A DNA stretch of 64,000 nucleotides. Origin: Minisyncoccota bacterium (lineage in GTDB: Bacteria > Patescibacteriota > Minisyncoccia > Phycocordibacterales > UBA9973). Below, in pieces: positions 9,158 to 22,573 of the stretch. Where the stretch lies: assembly GCA_035353995.1 (NCBI GenBank), contig DAOQAL010000001.1, positions 4,020 to 68,019 on the forward strand. Direction: 5' to 3'. The translations under genes were made by a program, and so were the position numbers. The first letter of the stretch is position 1; every line of letters begins with the position of its first letter. Below the pieces are notes generated by a model. That model made no database searches. It was not told where the DNA came from and saw only the letters and a program-made list of their open reading frames with translations.

Positions 9158-10244
9158 TGTTACTTTTAATGGAGATTTTTTTTCTTTCAATATCATTCAT
9201 TATTTCCATAAATAATAATGCCCCTGGAATTGCTAAGATTAACCCCCAGAACCCAGCCAATTCAAGACCAATCAAAACAGCCAAAATCATTACCAAAGGA
9301 GAAAGACCTGTTACTCTTTTTATTATTAAAGGAGAGAATAGATAAACTTCAAATTGGTGAATAATTAAATATGCTCCAGCTACCATAAGTGCGCTTGAAA
9401 AACCACCTGAAAGATACGAGAATGAAACAGCTGGAATAACAGCAATTACAATTCCATAAGGAATCAATTCCATAATTCCGGCTATTATTGAAAGCATAAG
9501 AGCATACTGTATTCCCATTACTGACAAAACTAAGTAAGTCAAAATTGTTATCAAAAGTGCCAAGAGCAATTGCCCTTTAACCCATAAGCCAATTTTCTTG
9601 CTTGTTCTTTCCCATAACCCTACTATATATTCTTCATGTTTAAGTGGTAATATAACTCGTAAAAATTTTTCAATTCCTTTTTCTTGAATTGAAAGATAAA
9701 AAGAAACTATTACAATCAAAACTACGTTAAAAATACTTCCAAATGCAACAGAAAGAGTTGTAAAAAATCCATTTGATAGGTTTGTAATAAATGCTTTAGA
9801 AGTTTCCAAAAGAGTGCTTATGGATACACTATCTGATGATAAGCCAGCAACAATATCTTTTGCTCCAGAAAATGCTTCACTACTTAAATAATTTAAGAAA
9901 TCCACACCAGGAGCATATTCGGAAATAAATACAGCAAAATTATAAACTTCTGTAATTAGAAGAGGAGCAAAAATATAAAAGATACCTGCTAAAACAACCA
10001 AGGTTAGTACATAAAGAATTACTACACCCAAAACTCTACCAATTTTTATTTTTTTGAAAAAAGGAACTGCAGAATCAACAAAAGATGCTATAACAATGGA
10101 CGTTAATACGACTAAAACTAAATCTCTTAATTGCCATATTAAATAACAGCCAACCAGAATTAGAACTGCTCGGATTATTGTTCCACTAGAAATAGAAATA
10201 GACCCTGTGCCACTTTTTTCATTCATACGAGTATAATAACACAA
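9150..10244 (-). CDS. AI-2E (PerM/UPF0118) family membrane transporter
   Basis: A 364-aa protein with 7-8 TM segments. The C-terminal half shows the characteristic AI-2E pattern IAGIMELIPYGIVIAVIPAV. Confidence 0.55.
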   Translation of the reverse strand: MCYYTRMNEKSGTGSISISSGTIIRAVLILVGCYLIWQLRDLVLVVLTSIVIASFVDSAVPFFKKIKIGRVLGVVILYVLTLVVLAGIFYIFAPLLITEVYNFAVFISEYAPGVDFLNYLSSEAFSGAKDIVAGLSSDSVSISTLLETSKAFITNLSNGFFTTLSVAFGSIFNVVLIVIVSFYLSIQEKGIEKFLRVILPLKHEEYIVGLWERTSKKIGLWVKGQLLLALLITILTYLVLSVMGIQYALMLSIIAGIMELIPYGIVIAVIPAVSFSYLSGGFSSALMVAGAYLIIHQFEVYLFSPLIIKRVTGLSPLVMILAVLIGLELAGFWGLILAIPGALLFMEIMNDIERKKISIKSNNE

Positions 10245-10265
10245 AAATAGCCAACGTAGAACTAC

Positions 10266-11534
10266 TTAAAATTTTAATATTTTTGAGAATTTGTCCTTTT
10301 CTTTAAATGGACCAATGAGAGCTAAATTTAATTTTTCATCTTTAAATATCTCATTTGCCATTTTTTTTATTTCTTTTGAAGTAACTTTTCTTATTTCTTT
10401 TGCTTTTTCTTCTGCGTTTTTAATTTCTTTTTTAAGAAGTTCTTGTCCACCGTAAAAATTTGCTATATCATCGCTTGATTCGAGAGATAGTTTCATATTT
10501 CCTATCAAACATTCTTTTACTTTATTTAATTCTTCTTCTGAAACTAATTCGGTTTTTAATTTTTTACATTCATCAATAACAGCTTGTATAACTTCTTCGA
10601 TTCTTTTATTGTCTACACCAGCAGAAATTTCAAAAAATCCATGATCAGTATAAACATCATCATAAGCACGAACATAGTAGCCTACTCCCATTTCTTCGCG
10701 CAATTTTTGAAAAAGTCTTGAACTCATTCCTCCACCCAAAACTCCACCCAAAACAGATAATGCAATATTTTTTTTATTAAATAAATCATAAGTGCGAACA
10801 CCAAGAACAAAATGTGTTTGATCGGTATCTTTGAATTTTAATAATGTTTCAGGTGCAGATTGTTGTTCTTTTACTTTTTCTTTTTTAGCTTTTTTACCAC
10901 GAGAAATTTTACCAAATATTTTATTTGCTTCTTTTATAACTTCTTTTTGAGAAAGCTTACCTGCAACAACTAAAACAGTAGCTTCTGGTAGATAGTGAGC
11001 TTTTTTATATTTTACAAAATTTTCTCTTTTCATTTTCAAAATATTTTCTTTCTCTCCTGCAATATTCCAGCCAGCTGGTTGATCTCCGTATAAAAGTTTC
11101 ATAAAAAGATCTTGCACGTGTCTATTTGGCAAATCTTCATACATATTTATTTCTTCAATAATTACTCCTTTTTCTTTTTCAATTTCGGCTTCTGGAAAAG
11201 TAGAATTTAAATAAATGTCAGATACTATATCAAAAATTTTCTTAAAATGTTTAGCGTCAGATTTTGCATAATATCCTGTATATTCTTGTGCTGTAAAAGC
11301 ATTATATTGAGAACCAATAGCATCTAATTCTTTTGAAATATCTATTGCTTTTGGTCTTTTTATTGTCCCCTTGAAACACATGTGCTCAAGAAAATGTGAA
11401 ATACCATTATTATTTTTTTCTTCATATTTAGAACCAGCTTCTACTAACATCAAAACAGTAACCGTTGGATTATCTTTCATCGGCACTGTTATAACTTTCA
11501 AACCATTTTTTAAAACTTTTTTTGTATATTTCAT
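10266..11534 (-). CDS. M16-family zinc metallopeptidase (insulinase/pitrilysin-like)
   Basis: Inverted zincin motif HFLEHM (HxxEH) near the N-terminus, 422 aa, two-lobe M16 size. Confidence 0.8.
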   Translation of the reverse strand: MKYTKKVLKNGLKVITVPMKDNPTVTVLMLVEAGSKYEEKNNNGISHFLEHMCFKGTIKRPKAIDISKELDAIGSQYNAFTAQEYTGYYAKSDAKHFKKIFDIVSDIYLNSTFPEAEIEKEKGVIIEEINMYEDLPNRHVQDLFMKLLYGDQPAGWNIAGEKENILKMKRENFVKYKKAHYLPEATVLVVAGKLSQKEVIKEANKIFGKISRGKKAKKEKVKEQQSAPETLLKFKDTDQTHFVLGVRTYDLFNKKNIALSVLGGVLGGGMSSRLFQKLREEMGVGYYVRAYDDVYTDHGFFEISAGVDNKRIEEVIQAVIDECKKLKTELVSEEELNKVKECLIGNMKLSLESSDDIANFYGGQELLKKEIKNAEEKAKEIRKVTSKEIKKMANEIFKDEKLNLALIGPFKEKDKFSKILKF

Positions 11535-15744: not shown

Positions 15745-16326
15745 TTACAAATGACTTTCACTAATAGCCTTATTTATCTCTGAAAGAATTTTTGTTCTCT
15801 TTTTGTCAGCTTCTAATACAAGTTTTTCATCAAAAGGAGTTTTAATTATCGTATTCAAAGAATTACTTGCACCGATATAACCTAAGTTGCTCAAAATTCT
15901 CAAAACTATTATGGCTTCAATATTTTGCAATTCATTTTTTGATTTTGATTTTTCTAAAAAAGACAAACCATTTAATAAATCATCGAATAAAGAAGAATTT
16001 GGCTCTTCACCAGCAAGTAACCTTTTTAGTAAATTTGATATGTTCGCAAAAATCATAAGTTTTTGTTTTTCTTTTTTTATTTCTTCAAGCTCTGGCGTTT
16101 TCAATGCATTTGTAATTCTCCAGTAATCTTTTCCACGTACAAAATCAATTTTTACATGAGAAAAATCTTGCAAAACGAAACGAAGTTTAGAAGAAATTTT
16201 TCTAATACCTTGAGCACTAGCATAAATCATTCCTAAGTCGCGAGTAAAAATAGCGTAGCTACGATCAGCCTCTTTAGTATTTCTACTGCTAAGTATTATA
16301 CCCTCCGTATGATAAATATGATGCAT
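15745..16326 (-). CDS. recO: DNA repair protein RecO (short form)
   Basis: N-terminal OB-fold signature TEGIILSSRNTKEADRSYAIFTRDLGMIYASAQGIRKISSKL...RGKDYWRIT matches the RecO consensus (EGIVLR..YGE.D.I..L.T...G...A.A.G.R...S). At 193 aa it lacks the Zn module. Confidence 0.6.
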   Translation of the reverse strand: MHHIYHTEGIILSSRNTKEADRSYAIFTRDLGMIYASAQGIRKISSKLRFVLQDFSHVKIDFVRGKDYWRITNALKTPELEEIKKEKQKLMIFANISNLLKRLLAGEEPNSSLFDDLLNGLSFLEKSKSKNELQNIEAIIVLRILSNLGYIGASNSLNTIIKTPFDEKLVLEADKKRTKILSEINKAISESHL

Positions 16327-19300
16327 TATTTCTCAATCTTTATTCGAAAAACAAGATTGTCGATTTTGATTTCCTCGCCTTGGTTTTCAGAAAATTTTAT
16401 TTCGGATGCCAAAACTGTTTTCTTTATATCTTTTTCAAATTTTTTAATTAATTTTTCTCCATCTTCTTGTGTCTTAATAAAGAGAACAATATTATCATTC
16501 GGTGTAAGTCCAGCCTTTTTACGCATATCTTGTACTGCTCGCACAAATTCTCTATAATTTCCTTCTTCTTTTAATTCTAGCGTTATTTCCATATCAAGTA
16601 AAACTTCTGTTTCAATATTTTTATTTTCTAGAACATCTTTTACATTTAATTCATCTTTTATAAGTTCTAAATATTTTTTATCAAGAGATAAATTTTTTAT
16701 TTCCATCTTTGCAAGAGGTTGTCTTACCGGAATTCCTCCTTTTTGTCTTTTTTCAAGTCCAATAGAAACAATTTTTCTTACATCTTCCATATTTTTTATT
16801 ATTTCTTGGTCTACTTTTTTATTTTCTGGCCAGCTTGCAAGATGTATACTTTCTTCATCTTTAAAGTTTTTTAACTTCAACCATATATCTTCGGCAGTAA
16901 ACGGAGCAAATGGAGCTATAATCTTAGATAGATTTTTTAAAACGAAGTACAAAGTCTGTCTAGCTTCACCATAATCCTTAAGAGTAATAGGCCTACTTGC
17001 TTCTTCTTTAATTCGATCACGAGAACGACGTAAATACCAAGTAGAAAGATCATTTATAAAATCACGAATTGCTCTTGTTGGCTCTAGAACTCTATAATTA
17101 TCCATATTTTCTACACAAAGAATATTTAATTCATCTAATTTAGACACAATCCACTGATCTAAAATATTTTCTGATTTTTTATATTCCAATTTTTCCAATT
17201 CAATGTCTCTATATAGTTCATAAAAAGCAAGCACATTATAAAGTAAACCAAAAACTTGTCGATGAAGTTCAACAACAGTTTTTTCATCAAAGTTTTTTGA
17301 TTCACCAGGCTGGTTTACTCCGTACATCCAAAGACGAAGAGTATCTACTCCATATTTATTAATCATTGACCATGGATCTACAACATTTCCAATAGACTTA
17401 GACATTTTTTTACCATTTGCATCCAAAAGTAAACCTAAACAAATAACATTTTTATATGCTTTACCTCGCCCCATTAATGTTCCCACAGCATGCAAAGTGT
17501 AAAACCATCCACGAGTTTGATCTATTGCTTCAGAAATAAAATCAGCCGGATATTTCAAATTTTTATTTTCAAAAAGTCCACCTTTAGCAAAATCGAATGG
17601 ATAATGATCCTGAGAAAACGGCATAGTTCCCGAATCAAGCCAAACATCCATTACTTCTTTTGTCCTTTCTAATTTTCCTCCACAAACTTGCCCTGAGCCT
17701 GTTGAATTAGAACAAATAAGTTCCGCCTCATCAATATAAGGTTTGTGTAAGTCTGGCATATAATCCTCGTCATGTGGCAGAGAAACAAATCCGAATTCTT
17801 TTATTTCTGCATTGTTTATAGAAACCAGAGGATCATGTTTGCTAGATAAATCCGAAAAAGAAAGTCCTTTCACAATAAAACTAATTGCTCGACTGGTTGA
17901 ACCTTGATGTCCTATAATTAAAATATTTTTATTATTATATTTTTTCTCAATTTCGTATAAGAATTCACCAACCCTTTTTACTAACTCCGCAAAACTTTCA
18001 CCACCAGGAAGAGATTCTTTCGGACTATCTAAGTAATCAAGGTCATAATATTTTTTAAATTCAGAGCGATCCTTTTTGTCAAAAACATTACTGGTTTCCA
18101 TCTCTTTTATACGGTCATCAAAAATTACTTTTTCAATTGGAAATCCAGTTTGTTTACAAAAGATCTCGGCTGTTTCTTTTGTACGTTCAAAAGGTGAAGA
18201 TATAATAATATCAATTTTTTCTTTGAAGTTTTTTGCACTTTCTATAACTTGCTCTTTGCCATTTTCTGTTAGTTTTGCACTATGATGTATATCTCTGGAA
18301 TTAACATTATCTTTAGCTATATTATTCATTGCTTCACCATGTCGCATAACAAAATATCTATTGCCTGATTTTTTAGTTTTTTCTTTCAAGTCAGCCACAC
18401 TGCCTATAACTTCTAATTTTCCACATTTACTGCATGTCCAAACAGGAAGTGGTGTTCCCCAATATCTCTCTCTGGAAATTGCCCAATCTTTTATTTCACG
18501 AAGCCATTCACCAAAACGTCCTTCTTTTATATGTGCTGGTTCCCAATTAATACCTTCGTTCTCTTTTACAAGTTTGTCTCTCAAAGATGACATTTTTATA
18601 TACCAAGAATCTCGTGCGTAATAAATAAGCGCAGTTTTACATCTCCAACAATGTGGATATGAGTGTTCGTATTTTTCTTTTTTTAATAAAAGTTCACGAT
18701 GTGCTAAGTCTTTTATAATATCTACAGCTACATCTTCATCACGAACAAATCTTCCTTCAAGAAAACCTGTTCCTGCTAAAAATTTTCCATCAAGACCAAC
18801 TAAATGATGTTTTGGTAAACCAATTTCTGTGCCCAGCATGAAGTCATCTTGTCCATACATTACAGCAGTATGCACAACTCCAGTTCCATCTTCAGTAGTA
18901 ACAAAACTAGCTGGATAAACTTTAAATGATTTTTCTAAATTCTCACCTTTTTTCTCAAGTTGTTCTTTCAAAAATGGATAAAGTGGTTCATATTCTAAAC
19001 CAATTAAATCTTTACCTTTAACCACATTTAATACCCTCTCCTCATGTGCCTCACCCATTAAATAAAGATCCATAAGATTTTGATTTTTAGGACCATTTTT
19101 ATCAACAACGGTATCTGGTGAAAAAATATATGAATTTCTAGTTCCATCATTTTCTGTTTTTGTAATAATCCAATATTTAACATTTTTATTTATAGCAAGC
19201 GCAACATTTCCTGGCAAAGTCCAAGGGGTAGTAGTCCATGCTATTATGTATGTATTTTCTGTTGTAGTGAAATTATCTATTTTCTGTCCAACTTTTAATT

Positions 19301-19934
19301 TAAATTTTACATAGACAGATAAATCTTTTACGTCTTGATAGCCTTGAGCAAGTTCATGGGAAGAAAGAGCTGTTCCACATCGTGGACACCATGGTACAAC
19401 TTTATAATCTTTATAAAGTAATTTTTGTTTATCTACTTCTTTTACTACATTCCAAACAGATTCAATATAATTATTGTGATATGTAACGTATGGATTTTTT
19501 TGATCAACCCAAAAACCAATTCGCTCTGTAAATTTTTCCCAAAGATCTACGTATTGCCAAACACTTTCTTTACATTTTTTATTAAATTTAGCAACTCCGT
19601 ATTCTTCAATTTCTTTTTTTGATTTTAAACCGAGTTCTTTTTCAACTTGCAATTCTACAGGCAAACCATGAGTATCCCAACCTCCTTTTCTGCGAACATA
19701 ATACCCTTTCATTGTTTTGTAACGTGGAATAACATCTTTAAAAGCTCTTGCTTCTAAATGATGAATTCCAGGTTTACCATTTGCAGTAGGTGGACCTTCG
19801 TAAAAAACGAAATCACCACTTGGTGCTTCTTTTTCTAAAGATTTTTCAAAAATTTTATTTTCTTTCCAAAATTTTAAAACTGCTTCTTCTTTTTTTGCTA
19901 TCTCACTTTTGTTTTTGTTTTCTTCTTTGTCCAT
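16326..19934 (-). CDS. ileS: Isoleucyl-tRNA synthetase with an embedded histidine-phosphatase-like domain
   Basis: Carries PPTANGKPGIHH (HIGH region), a CP1 editing region with TTPWTLP, WCPRCGTAL and WTCSKCG zinc knuckles, KMSKS (KKMSKSIGN) and an anticodon-binding C-terminus. It is 1202 aa because of an insertion of about 200 aa at residues ~525-725 (see findings). Confidence 0.9.
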   Translation of the reverse strand: MDKEENKNKSEIAKKEEAVLKFWKENKIFEKSLEKEAPSGDFVFYEGPPTANGKPGIHHLEARAFKDVIPRYKTMKGYYVRRKGGWDTHGLPVELQVEKELGLKSKKEIEEYGVAKFNKKCKESVWQYVDLWEKFTERIGFWVDQKNPYVTYHNNYIESVWNVVKEVDKQKLLYKDYKVVPWCPRCGTALSSHELAQGYQDVKDLSVYVKFKLKVGQKIDNFTTTENTYIIAWTTTPWTLPGNVALAINKNVKYWIITKTENDGTRNSYIFSPDTVVDKNGPKNQNLMDLYLMGEAHEERVLNVVKGKDLIGLEYEPLYPFLKEQLEKKGENLEKSFKVYPASFVTTEDGTGVVHTAVMYGQDDFMLGTEIGLPKHHLVGLDGKFLAGTGFLEGRFVRDEDVAVDIIKDLAHRELLLKKEKYEHSYPHCWRCKTALIYYARDSWYIKMSSLRDKLVKENEGINWEPAHIKEGRFGEWLREIKDWAISRERYWGTPLPVWTCSKCGKLEVIGSVADLKEKTKKSGNRYFVMRHGEAMNNIAKDNVNSRDIHHSAKLTENGKEQVIESAKNFKEKIDIIISSPFERTKETAEIFCKQTGFPIEKVIFDDRIKEMETSNVFDKKDRSEFKKYYDLDYLDSPKESLPGGESFAELVKRVGEFLYEIEKKYNNKNILIIGHQGSTSRAISFIVKGLSFSDLSSKHDPLVSINNAEIKEFGFVSLPHDEDYMPDLHKPYIDEAELICSNSTGSGQVCGGKLERTKEVMDVWLDSGTMPFSQDHYPFDFAKGGLFENKNLKYPADFISEAIDQTRGWFYTLHAVGTLMGRGKAYKNVICLGLLLDANGKKMSKSIGNVVDPWSMINKYGVDTLRLWMYGVNQPGESKNFDEKTVVELHRQVFGLLYNVLAFYELYRDIELEKLEYKKSENILDQWIVSKLDELNILCVENMDNYRVLEPTRAIRDFINDLSTWYLRRSRDRIKEEASRPITLKDYGEARQTLYFVLKNLSKIIAPFAPFTAEDIWLKLKNFKDEESIHLASWPENKKVDQEIIKNMEDVRKIVSIGLEKRQKGGIPVRQPLAKMEIKNLSLDKKYLELIKDELNVKDVLENKNIETEVLLDMEITLELKEEGNYREFVRAVQDMRKKAGLTPNDNIVLFIKTQEDGEKLIKKFEKDIKKTVLASEIKFSENQGEEIKIDNLVFRIKIEK

Positions 19935-19949
19935 AAAAAATATTTATTA

Positions 19950-20160
19950 TCAAATAAAAAAATCGTCCACGTACAACAATAAAAATTGTTATACAAGGAC
20001 GATTTTTTCGCTAGCGGTGAGCATAGTCGAATCGTGGTACCACCTTGTTTCTCTCCTTTACGGAGACTCAATTACAGCTATAACGGGCATACCCGCCGAG
20101 CTCTACTTGCCTTTCGGCTTTCTCCTCGGTGCTCCAGAGTGATAACTCCTTCAATGCTTT
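19950..20160 (-). promoter_or_regulatory. T-box riboswitch-like leader of ileS (Ile specifier)
   Basis: On the minus strand: promoter TTGTAA-17-TATAAT, Stem I region containing AUC-A (rc of + 20141-20143), T-box core AAGGUGGUACCACG (rc of + 20033-20046), and a terminator hairpin (+ 19964-20001) followed by a U-run directly before the ileS ATG. Confidence 0.6.
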
Positions 20161-20239
20161 AGTTTGATTATACTCACAAATTCGAGAAATTACAACAAAC
20201 ATTAACCCCCTTGCATTTTAAAAAAGAAGATGGCATACT

Positions 20240-20803
20240 CCCAAATAGAGTAACTGTTCTTTTTGCCTCAAATTCGCGACTTGAGAGATTCTCGGGAACG
20301 AGAAACCCTGTCTTTGTGCCCCACAAAAGTGGGTGGAAAGTTAGAAGAACAGTCTCCTTAATATTAGATTACCCGCAAAAAGCGGTTCAATGATGGATGC
20401 AAATTTCTGTTTTTACGAAAAATCTCGCCAACCGTACCCGGGAAAAGGGACTTATCTCGAGAAAAGCCCCTGTGTATAAGCGGTAACGGAAATGAATCAC
20501 ACACTGGAAAAACATTGCCATAAACCGAATAGGTGCACACTTTGGAATGCCAGTGTGGTCAGGTGTCAAAGCTGGACAAAATTGTGTCCAGAAAAATACG
20601 TGTCGCAGGCGCTGTCATACGGTATACCTAGTTTAGATTCAGCATTCATCCAAGCTCAATTATCCTTTCCGGTGGGAGGCGCTGAGCACGCATTACAGGC
20701 ATTACCCGGAAATTATTCTTCCCAGCCAGCCATAACCATAATGGTTCATGAAATTTCGCCGGAGAAGAGCAGAGCCGTCCCAAGTTATCGGACGGCTTTT
20801 TTT
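20240..20803 (+). ncRNA. Unassigned GC-rich structured RNA candidate (about 550 nt), with promoter TTGCAT-17-CATACT at 20211-20239 and a plus-strand intrinsic terminator at 20774-20803
   Basis: GC content is clearly above the flanking coding DNA. There are multiple local hairpins, including a GNRA-type UCUCG-GGAA-CGAGA, CCCAC-AAAAG-UGGG and CUGGACA-N6-UGUCCAG, plus a long-range complementarity 20262-20276 / 20346-20360. No credible ORF. The ending GCCGTCC-N9-GGACGGC-TTTTTTT works as a terminator only on the plus strand. Strand and identity are uncertain. Confidence 0.35.
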
Positions 20804-20821
20804 ATTTTATCTACTTCCGGG

Positions 20822-22573
20822 TTACATTTTTTCTGGAGTTTTTATACCAAGAAGCCAGAGACCATTTTTCATAGTCTGATAAAAAGATTTAACAAGTTCT
20901 AAATGATAAATAATATATTTATTATCATTTTCTAAAATTTTTGTATTTCCATAAAAAGTATTAAATGCGCTAGCAAGTTCTACAAGATAAGTAGCTATAT
21001 AATGTGGAGCAAATTCTTTATAAGAACGATTTACTATTTCTACAAATTGATAAAGCATTTTTTCTAAATCTGTAATTTCTTTTGGAATTTCTTTGCCATT
21101 TTTTAAATTAAATTCTTTGGATTTTTGAATAATTGAATTTGCACGAACAGCCGTATATTGTAAATAAGGCCCAGAATCACCCTCAAAAGAAATTGATTTT
21201 TCAAAATCAAAAATAATATCACTTCCGATTGAAGATTTTAATATGGAATATTTTAAAGATGAAACTCCAACAATTTCAGCAATATTTTCTTTTTCTATAT
21301 CAGAAAATTCTCGTTTAGAAATTTTTTCTCTAATCATATTTAACGAATCGTTAAGTAATGATTCACCAGTTACTATATTTCCTTTTCTAGATGACATCTT
21401 TCCATCTGCCAAACGCATCATACCGTGAGTAATATGTTTCATTCTCTTTTCTAAATCAGGATGCATAATAGAAATTGCTTTTTGTACAACTCTCATATAT
21501 TCAGCTTGTTCACTAGCAGTTGTTACAATAGATAAATCTAATTTTTTTCCAAATAAATTTTTCTTAAATTTAGTTAGTGTTAAACCCAATTCTTTGGCTT
21601 CGTACGTTGGTAATTGTTGAGAATTTACAAACACTCTCGTATGCAATTTTGGGTCATATTTCTCACCATGAAAAACGATAGCCCCATCAGATTCTTCAAA
21701 AATATTTCCTATATTTTTTTCCACAATCTTTTTACCGATTTCAGCCATTTCAGATTCAAAATAATATTTATCAAATTTTGTACCAAGCAATTTATATATT
21801 TCTTCAAATGCTTCTAGAGTTATTTTTCTTCCCCAATTATATATTTTATTTATTTCATCATCAGTTTTATCGTAAATTTTTTTATTTATTATATCAATTT
21901 CTTTTTTAGCATTTTCATCATTTTCGTAAGCATCATTTCCTTTTACATAAATTTCTCCTATAAAACGCGCTTTTTCTGCAATCGTTTTTTTTGTATCAGG
22001 TAAACCAAATTTTTTTAATCCATAAATAGCTTTTGCTACATGAGGACCGACATCGCCTTGATAATTTGCGCGAATCACTTCTGCTCCAGAAAATTCAACA
22101 ATTCTAGAAATTGATTCCCCTATTGCATTACTCATTAAGTGCCCAATATGAAATGGTTTAAAAGGATTTGGTTGAGTATATTCAATCATAACTTTTTTAC
22201 CTAACAATGTTTTTTCTTTTCCCCAATTCTCTTTTTGTTTTAAAATTTCTTTTACACTATAGGTAAAAAATTCTCGTGATAAATAAAAATTTATAAAACC
22301 AGGACCAGCAATTTCTATTTTTTCTATTTCTTTAATTTTATTTTTTAGTAACTCTTCAACTATTTTTACAGCAAGATCTCTTGGTGTTTTTTCTAATTGT
22401 TTTGAACAAGCAAGAGCTACATTAGTAGAATAGTCCCCATTATTAAAATTCTCTGGATGCTCAACTACAAATTCACTATCCCATTCTATTTCAAGATTTT
22501 TTAAAGCATCCCTGATTAAATTTTTTATTCGTTCTTTCATCTTATTTATGACCAGTCGTTCCAAAACCTCCAC
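20822..22573 (-). CDS. argS: Arginyl-tRNA synthetase
   Basis: Add-1 N-terminal domain, HIGH motif PFHIGHLMS, and a DALR-type anticodon-binding C-terminus ending in M. 583 aa. Confidence 0.9.
   Translation of the reverse strand: MEVLERLVINKMKERIKNLIRDALKNLEIEWDSEFVVEHPENFNNGDYSTNVALACSKQLEKTPRDLAVKIVEELLKNKIKEIEKIEIAGPGFINFYLSREFFTYSVKEILKQKENWGKEKTLLGKKVMIEYTQPNPFKPFHIGHLMSNAIGESISRIVEFSGAEVIRANYQGDVGPHVAKAIYGLKKFGLPDTKKTIAEKARFIGEIYVKGNDAYENDENAKKEIDIINKKIYDKTDDEINKIYNWGRKITLEAFEEIYKLLGTKFDKYYFESEMAEIGKKIVEKNIGNIFEESDGAIVFHGEKYDPKLHTRVFVNSQQLPTYEAKELGLTLTKFKKNLFGKKLDLSIVTTASEQAEYMRVVQKAISIMHPDLEKRMKHITHGMMRLADGKMSSRKGNIVTGESLLNDSLNMIREKISKREFSDIEKENIAEIVGVSSLKYSILKSSIGSDIIFDFEKSISFEGDSGPYLQYTAVRANSIIQKSKEFNLKNGKEIPKEITDLEKMLYQFVEIVNRSYKEFAPHYIATYLVELASAFNTFYGNTKILENDNKYIIYHLELVKSFYQTMKNGLWLLGIKTPEKM

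Follow-up and report, generated by a model that had tools for sequence, protein, structure and literature searches.

A GC-rich island between argS and ileS

The 64-kb stretch of DNA considered here, called the window throughout, forms part of contig DAOQAL010000001.1 of an uncultured Minisyncoccota bacterium of the Paceibacteria/Nomurabacteria type (assembly GCA_035353995.1), and the element under study is a putative non-coding RNA (ncRNA) specified in the spacer between argS (20822-22573) and ileS (16326-19934), both of which lie on the minus strand. This spacer of 888 nucleotides (nt) holds the T-box leader of ileS, on the minus strand at the ileS side, together with the segment at 20200-20810 that concerns us. 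In 150-nt windows, GC content is 0.41-0.49 across 20175-20850, against 0.23-0.33 in argS and ileS and a mean of 0.31 for the 64 kb as a whole, so that the GC-rich island recognized in an initial annotation of the sequence, together with the argS stop that it placed at 20822, is borne out. DNA identical to the window is present in the metagenome-assembled genome (MAG) GCA_964524305.1 and in JGI metagenome 3300009694; the encoded ArgS shares at most 74% identity with any counterpart among 185,579 species representatives.

The segment is predicted to give rise to an independently transcribed plus-strand RNA of about 560 nt, running from a putative sigma-70-like promoter at 20211-20239 to an intrinsic terminator at 20771-20803. 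The putative promoter, as read from the sequence, comprises TTGCAT (20211-20216), a 17-nt spacer that includes TG at 20231-32, and CATACT (20234-20239), and lies 16 nt from the divergent promoter of the T-box leader. The terminator consists of a stem at 20771-80/20790-99 with a GC core (20774-80/20790-96), a 9-nt loop and a U7 tract (T7 at 20797-20803 in the DNA), and folds at -15.8 kcal/mol (z -5.4); the minus strand lacks a T-run after the hairpin. The plus-strand-only terminator initially annotated as GCCGTCC (20774-20780)-N9-GGACGGC (20790-20796)-T7 is exact in sequence, and escaped our terminator scan because the scan admits loops of no more than 8 nt.

Folding signal is unevenly distributed along this RNA, which as a whole has a z score of -2.8 (plus strand) or -1.8 (minus strand). 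Its 5' domain (20248-20358, plus strand), specific to the window, folds at -35.2 kcal/mol (z -3.2 plus, -2.4 minus) by means of a closing stem of 11 base pairs (bp), 20253-20263/20343-20353, drawn around hairpins that include one capped by GGAA at 20290-20303 and another at 20320-20333. No homologue of this domain occurs in the second genome described below or elsewhere, and comparative support for it is absent. A linker (20359-20493, plus strand; z +0.3 plus, -1.8 minus) contains small hairpins such as that at 20373-20385 and is not conserved; it leads into the core (20494-20645, plus strand), and this in turn into a window-specific 3' domain (20646-20772, plus strand) with z scores of -0.85 plus and -0.08 minus over 20641-20772, which gives no alignment with the second genome. 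Only 20248-20358, 20494-20640 and the terminator fold better than shuffled sequences, whereas 20359-20493 and 20641-20772 do not. A long-range pairing and many stable hairpins, some with GNRA caps, had been described initially: the pairing exists, as the 11-bp closing stem, about 9 nt away from the coordinates first assigned to it, and the GGAA-capped hairpin is present, whereas the middle and 3' domains as such do not exceed the shuffles. Given this unevenness among domains, the description of the segment as a 550-nt structured RNA overstates the structure that can be demonstrated.

A conserved core shared with one other genome

Among about 95 related Paceibacteria argS-ileS loci checked, one alone, locus L004 of the Paceibacterota MAG JBAYKD01, proved to hold a homologue of the segment, and there only the core is represented. 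Window positions 20490-20652 align with L004 9984-9833 (nhmmer E 8e-10), placing the counterpart of the core, the only part common to the two RNAs, on the minus strand of L004 at 9984..9833. The L004 RNA is shorter (about 370 nt) and is without the window's 5' and 3' domains. As in the window, it stands directly upstream of the ileS T-box promoter and divergent from it, and it is provided with equivalent signals, a promoter-like TTGCAA-17-TAGTAT site and a hairpin with T-run at about 9760-9725, as strong a terminator type as that of the window; it does not adjoin argS, two open reading frames (ORFs) lying between them.

Several comparisons suggest that this core has been held by selection. The two copies are 70% identical, the same figure as for the ArgS proteins, while conserved four-fold codons of argS agree at 40.5% of third positions, where composition alone would give 33.7%, which implies that neutral sites are close to saturation between these genomes; the neighbouring, functional T-box leaders are 52% identical. 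A consensus structure of 33 pairs drawn from the two-sequence alignment is standard at 33/33 pairs in both genomes, with 6 compensatory and 2 G-U changes, whereas slid-alignment controls were 27-51% paired. Part of this structure is helix P1, a long interrupted hairpin on the plus strand at 20500-20557 (20500-02/20555-57, 20504-07/20550-53, 20513-16/20546-49 and 20518-20/20543-45), all 14 pairs of which are standard in both genomes, with 3 compensatory double changes and 1 G-U change. Fold energies agree in polarity: the core of the window (20494-20640) has a z score of -2.8 on the plus and -0.6 on the minus strand, and for the L004 RNA the values are -107 kcal/mol (z -4.5) in the sense and -87 kcal/mol (z -2.3) in the antisense direction. 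G-U pairs and fold energy together settle the RNA strand as plus in the window. These data, from two sequences, suggest purifying selection on the core, and would be hard to square with neutral decay.

Resemblance to helix 18 of 16S rRNA

Beyond P1, the core contains a module that resembles helix 18 of 16S rRNA, the one classifiable feature of the segment, which the initial annotation missed. In the window this module spans 20561-20629 on the plus strand and opens with an outer stem, AGGU/ACCU (20561-64/20626-29) in both RNAs, where Escherichia coli 16S has GCACC/GGUGC. There follows the triplet GUC (20565-67), also common to both RNAs and corresponding to GGC at 505-507 of E. coli; it can pair with GGC at 20608-10 in the manner of 16S 505-507/524-526, and all three pairs are possible in each case (GGC/GCC in 16S, GUC/GAC in L004, GUC/GGC in the window). 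The bases after the triplet are AAA (20568-70) rather than UAA. Next comes an insert of 18-28 nt that has no equivalent in E. coli and carries a small hairpin (20572-77/20586-91 in the window), no stem pair of which is the same in the two genomes. The inner 7-bp stem, CUCCGUG/UACGGAG in E. coli, is AUACGUG/UACGUAU in the two RNAs, written UACG(G)UAU for the window's 3' strand (20596-20602/20618-25), and it encloses a loop of 15-16 nt (15 in the window, 16 in E. coli) that keeps the internal pairs 521-522/527-528, as 20605-06/20611-12. All pairs of the helix 18 secondary structure, including the outer stem, the 7-bp inner stem and the two loop-internal pairs, are standard in both RNAs. The 505-507/524-526 complementarity and equivalents of A509/A510 are likewise present in both, and the pseudoknot is thereby predicted; these features are universally conserved in 16S rRNA (PMC2665224). 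That the pseudoknot partners are kept through changes of sequence suggests that the helix 18 fold is itself under selection.

The resemblance was also recovered by two independent model-based searches. A covariance model of this module built from the two RNAs only (R1) had E. coli 16S 509-540 as its sole match (26.2 bits, E 7e-6; the next scored 6 bits), with compensated stem pairs. The L004 core holds AAAUACGUGCCAGCAGACGCGGUUAUACG, which agrees with E. coli 16S 509-537 in 25 of 29 positions, and its hairpin is matched over 32 nt by positions 499-530 of the Rfam SSU_rRNA_bacteria model (18.9 bits, E 3.6e-4; gathering score 50 bits). The window copy is helix-18-like through its predicted structure and through its homology with L004, and we regard a relationship of the core to helix 18 as quite probable. 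The universal sequence of the 530 loop, GUGCCAGCAGCCGCGGUAAUAC, is not kept in either RNA: L004 has GUGCCAGCAGACGCGGUUAUAC, with 2 changes, and the window has GUGUCGCAGGCGCUGUCAUAC, in which 5 universally conserved bases are changed.

Neither RNA is a 16S rRNA gene or a recognizable fragment of one, since the SSU model reaches its gathering value in neither and similarity does not extend beyond one helix. Local alignment, nhmmer and chaining with low gap extension against E. coli 16S and 23S rRNA revealed nothing above shuffles outside helix 18. Descent of the whole RNA from the 16S 5' domain had been hinted at by its size (about 560 nt) and by several short colinear matches seen by eye, CACACUGGAA being equal to 16S 312-321 and GCAUUACCCGGAAAUUAUU resembling 548-565. 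This derivation was rejected, with alignment z scores of -2.2 and +0.6 for the window and of 1.8 for L004 (due to helix 18 alone); with no significant 16S or 23S similarity beyond the hairpin, the RNA is not a decayed 5' domain. As a separate observation, window positions 20492-20510 (AUGAAUCACACACUGGAAA) show 16/19 complementarity to E. coli 16S 1463-1481, in helix 44; the match is not significant (E 0.36), and this region of helix 44 is variable among bacteria. The organism's own 16S gene does not lie within 5.7 kb of the low-coordinate window end, where the 421-kb contig terminates, or within 10 kb beyond the other end, in which only four clustered tRNA genes occur, just past the high-coordinate window end (L103 5955-7159); an rRNA gene is present in none of the fetched loci.

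Distribution and genomic neighbourhood

The argS-ileS arrangement is retained in 66 of 80 loci, most of these with a T-box motif upstream of ileS, and the spacer ranges from 27 to 5245 nt. No further homologue of the RNA was detected when 80 GTDB species loci were searched with a profile of the two sequences (nhmmer --max), nor by R1 over 1.03 Mb, and a single pattern scan of metagenomes (GCCNNNGTGGTNAGGTGTCAAA) returned, besides L004's own contig, three chance matches, all within coding sequence or unrelated DNA. In the nearest IleS relatives of the two carriers, the gap upstream of ileS measures 34-270 nt, which is too short for the RNA, and the RNA is absent from it; a 660-nt gap at this position in L042 is AT-rich and not homologous.

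Among neighbouring genes, a family of Cys-rich proteins of about 556 amino acids (aa), with many CxxC motifs, often occupies the argS-ileS interval, sometimes as tandem paralogues. One member, ORF556 (L004 8051-9721), lies beside the L004 copy; others are found in L001, L003, L008, L035, L042, L043, L053, L057, L062, L063 and L066. A link between ORF556 and the RNA was rejected since the gene is common at argS-ileS loci that lack the RNA. The family has a sub-threshold match to a treble-clef zinc-finger Pfam entry only, and none in NCBIfam or PADLOC. Two types of IleS, only about 41-47% identical to each other, share one syntenic position across genomes in which ArgS identity is 60-74% (L001-L080), which suggests replacement of ileS within the clade; the window and L004 have different IleS types, yet both contain the RNA. 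IleS proteins of the clade (1140-1330 aa) carry PF00300 (His_Phos_1) between two tRNA-synt_1 matches, a feature of essentially all 240 homologues listed (P0001-P0240). Small free-standing ORFs of 91-93 aa encoding a GIY-YIG nuclease domain were seen in one relative, near a dNK-dUTPase-argS cluster (L099 276-557), and elsewhere on the contig of the window organism (L103 19664-19939).

The T-box leader of ileS is a separate element on the minus strand (19957-20195), with its promoter TTGTAA-17-TATAAT (10/12 consensus positions) at 20195-20167, the T-box at 20163-19992 and a terminator hairpin at 20008-19957. Its score against the Rfam T-box model (RF00230), 55.3 bits (E 4e-11), falls short of the gathering threshold of 93, as does that of its L004 counterpart (10155-10286; 39 bits), and standard annotation would accordingly miss the leader. 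In both, Stem I is ultrashort, 6 nt replacing the 76-nt Stem I segment of Rfam, and the terminal loop UUAUCA holds the Ile codon AUC. The long terminator hairpin (19957-20008) also surfaced as spurious matches to plant miRNAs. At about 10095-10135 in L004, a palindromic TTGCAA can act as -35 element both for the T-box promoter (TTGCAA-17-TATTAT) and for the divergent RNA promoter (TTGCAA-17-TAGTAT); at about 2735-2775 in L096, whose IleS is 85% identical, the T-box promoter is kept and the RNA is absent.

Known RNA families, mobile elements and protein-coding potential

The window contains no tRNA gene and, in a cmscan against Rfam 15, no match at gathering score. Relaxing the threshold to E<=10 for 19850-20950 brings up no known RNA family in the segment proper and leaves the adjacent T-box as the only meaningful match, and ARAGORN reports no tRNA or tmRNA. 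RNase P, tmRNA, SRP, 6S, OLE, ROOL, GOLLD, HEARO and ribosomal protein leaders are rejected on this basis. The initial failure to fit RNase P, tmRNA or SRP motifs thus holds under cmscan and ARAGORN, while neither of the partial resemblances then pointed out, GGUCAGGU and ACAGGCAUUACCCGG, is a motif of SRP or RNase P RNA; at GGUCAGGU the sequence passes into the helix-18-like module. Phage and plasmid DNA gave no match by blastn, five scans of viral contigs gave chance matches only, and neither flanking repeats nor a mobility gene linked to the RNA were found.

A protein-coding gene or pseudogene, the 136-aa frame at 20492-20902, can be dismissed as extremely improbable: a gene caller did annotate it in a public MAG (L089 2033-2443), but no Pfam entry matches in six reading frames, 1.84 billion representative proteins include no homologue except itself and a spurious tandem-repeat translation, every frame of the homologous L004 region is interrupted by stops, indels in the window/L004 alignment are not multiples of three, and the frame overlaps the 3' end of argS. 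The absence of a credible ORF, noted at the outset, is upheld. The suggestion of an unclassified ncRNA is supported: the segment belongs to no Rfam family, gives no protein signal and has a covarying, strand-specific core at the syntenic site of one other genome. The grounds for refutation named at the outset apply in part, in that the RNA is missing from about 93 of about 95 loci, only some 150 of its 560 nt are conserved, and two of its four domains fold no better than shuffles.

A proposed helix-18-like RNA and the alternatives

From these findings we consider the segment to be probably a functional ncRNA gene, and most likely a rare accessory gene of Paceibacteria rather than a housekeeping RNA. 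As a whole, the explanation that we tentatively favour is an independent small RNA (sRNA) gene with a selected core, derived from or mimicking helix 18, which would act in trans as a decoy. Selection would bear on the core of about 150 nt (20494-20645), formed by P1 and the helix-18-like module, that is, a 530 stem-loop with pseudoknot; this core would either descend from a 16S fragment or be a mimic of one, and the 5' and 3' domains peculiar to the window would amount to lineage-specific scaffolding.

Known rRNA mimics bind ribosomal proteins, as in the autoregulation of mRNA leaders by S4, S8, S15, L1, L20 and others. Helix 18 touches uS4 through nucleotides 508-512 and uS12 through its opposite face, and is the substrate of RsuA (pseudouridine 516) and RsmG (m7G527). 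Given these precedents and contacts, a decoy acting in trans is the most natural hypothesis. It is possible, if doubtful, that the RNA offers a look-alike of helix 18 to a factor that normally reads the 30S shoulder, candidates being uS12 or uS4 among ribosomal proteins, RsmG or RsuA among enzymes that modify helix 18, or a toxin directed at rRNA; the RNA might then serve as a decoy or sponge. In its strict form, a free-standing trans decoy of the 30S shoulder, in which a working copy of the 530 stem-loop titrates uS12/uS4, RsmG/RsuA, a toxin or an antibiotic, the proposal is unlikely; if true, it would represent the first rRNA-mimic sRNA other than a cis-acting ribosomal protein leader.

A number of observations weigh against this interpretation. 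Of the 560 nt, about half is neither conserved nor folded beyond expectation. The promoter is putative and appears weak: TTGCAT matches TTGACA at 3/6 positions, and for this reason the site was unlisted by a consensus scan, while CATACT, with its TG, matches the -10 consensus at 4/6. Promoter-like sites in the region numbered 3 against 3.2 expected from shuffles, which leaves the site without statistical support; the hexamers, spacer and coordinates given for this promoter initially are exact, and it is the strength credited to it that does not hold. With only two members the covariation statistics are weak, and a shuffle control reached the observed covariation in 7 of 500 trials. The Rfam SSU model gives no match to the window copy at E<=10, and its loop, equal to 16S at 11 of 16 positions by eye, has drifted; together these argue against strict mimicry of the 530 loop. 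Binding of S4 needs helices 3, 4 and 16 and can dispense with the pseudoknot, so that helix 18 alone is not an S4 site. Finally, absence of the RNA from about 93 of about 95 relatives, the nearest kin of both carriers included, fits poorly with a housekeeping role such as the buffering of a ribosomal protein.

A functional orphan ncRNA might instead have a role unrelated to helix 18, as a mobile or defence-associated RNA or a structural one akin to other large RNAs of sporadic occurrence, the hairpin being raw material inherited from an rDNA fragment. We rate this as somewhat unlikely. It would accommodate the patchy occurrence in 2 of about 95 loci, the extra domains specific to each lineage, and a window loop that has diverged from 16S while the stems and P1 were kept. 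On the other hand, no mobility or defence gene accompanies the RNA (ORF556 is common without it and finds no match in PADLOC or NCBIfam), phage, plasmid and viral-contig matches are lacking, and the helix 18 pseudoknot partners have been kept through changes in both copies.

The initial annotation allowed for a decayed foreign element, and this survives as a rival, less its foreign signature, there being no phage or plasmid match, repeats or mobility gene: the segment could be what remains, in decay, of 16S rDNA or other foreign DNA that entered the argS-ileS spacer, at most supplying a terminator or insulator among convergently and divergently arranged genes. Such a relic is unlikely. The helix 18 similarity, the sporadic occurrence, the half of the window segment that is neither conserved nor folded above chance, and a spacer whose variable length attests that it accepts insertions would all be expected of it. 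Against this, with synonymous sites near saturation neutral DNA should be unalignable between the two genomes, whereas the core retains 70% identity, with compensatory changes and no broken pair; a recent transfer would leave the flanks of the core alignable, which they are not. Moreover, GC is held at 41-49% in a genome of 31% GC, and beyond the 32-nt hairpin there is no similarity to E. coli 16S or 23S rRNA above shuffles.

The cis-element and protein-gene readings are poorly supported. That the segment is a cis-acting part of a neighbour, either a long, structured 3' untranslated region (UTR) belonging to argS on the minus strand or a regulator coupled to the T-box of ileS by way of the divergent promoter region that they share, is very unlikely: the RNA does adjoin the T-box promoter in both genomes, the L004 TTGCAA can serve both directions, and the terminator hairpin is 18 nt from the argS stop, but structure and G-U pairs favour the plus strand, antisense to argS, two ORFs separate the L004 RNA from argS, about 45 related loci have T-box leaders that operate in the absence of the RNA, and no gene follows on its strand.

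Patescibacteria have unusual ribosomes and tiny genomes with almost no spare DNA, and a selected, GC-rich non-coding gene of 0.56 kb in such a genome calls for explanation. A functional role for the proposed helix-18-like sRNA could open a way to study how ribosomes are assembled, modified or protected in a phylum without cultured members; were the RNA no more than an rDNA fragment, co-opted or in decay, it would still document the persistence of rRNA-derived sequence outside an rRNA operon. Either way it constitutes a new family absent from Rfam, with two members so far, and the model of the core can be used for searches.

Comparison with known systems

Like the orphan ncRNAs recognized in GC-rich intergenic regions (e.g. 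PMC8632094), including OLE, ROOL, GOLLD and HEARO, the RNA described here is a long intergenic stretch of high GC within an AT-rich genome, measures several hundred nt, has several domains and occurs sporadically. It differs from them in having no Rfam match, two known members, about 150 nt of conserved sequence and no phage or mobile context. The T-box leader (RF00230), its immediate neighbour, is transcribed divergently, with a promoter at a distance of 16 nt; the two elements are distinct and occupy opposite strands, and the RNA is without T-box features.

With helix 18 of 16S rRNA the RNA shares the order of elements, namely an outer stem, a 3-nt pseudoknot strand, AA, a 7-bp inner stem ended by G-U and a loop of 15-16 nt. 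It departs from helix 18 in sitting outside any rRNA gene and in carrying a hairpin of 12-20 nt within the 18-28-nt insert between positions 510 and 511. The mRNA leaders of ribosomal protein operons are likewise non-ribosomal RNAs that contain a copy of a protein-binding element of rRNA, and they make mimicry plausible here. Such leaders reside in the 5' UTR of the operon that they regulate and act in cis, whereas the present RNA has its own terminator and no gene downstream on its strand in either the window or L004, its neighbours being argS, ileS and ORF556 and no ribosomal protein gene, and it matches no ribosomal protein leader family in Rfam. Should the helix 18 look-alike prove functional, rRNA mimicry would extend from these cis-acting leaders to a stand-alone RNA.

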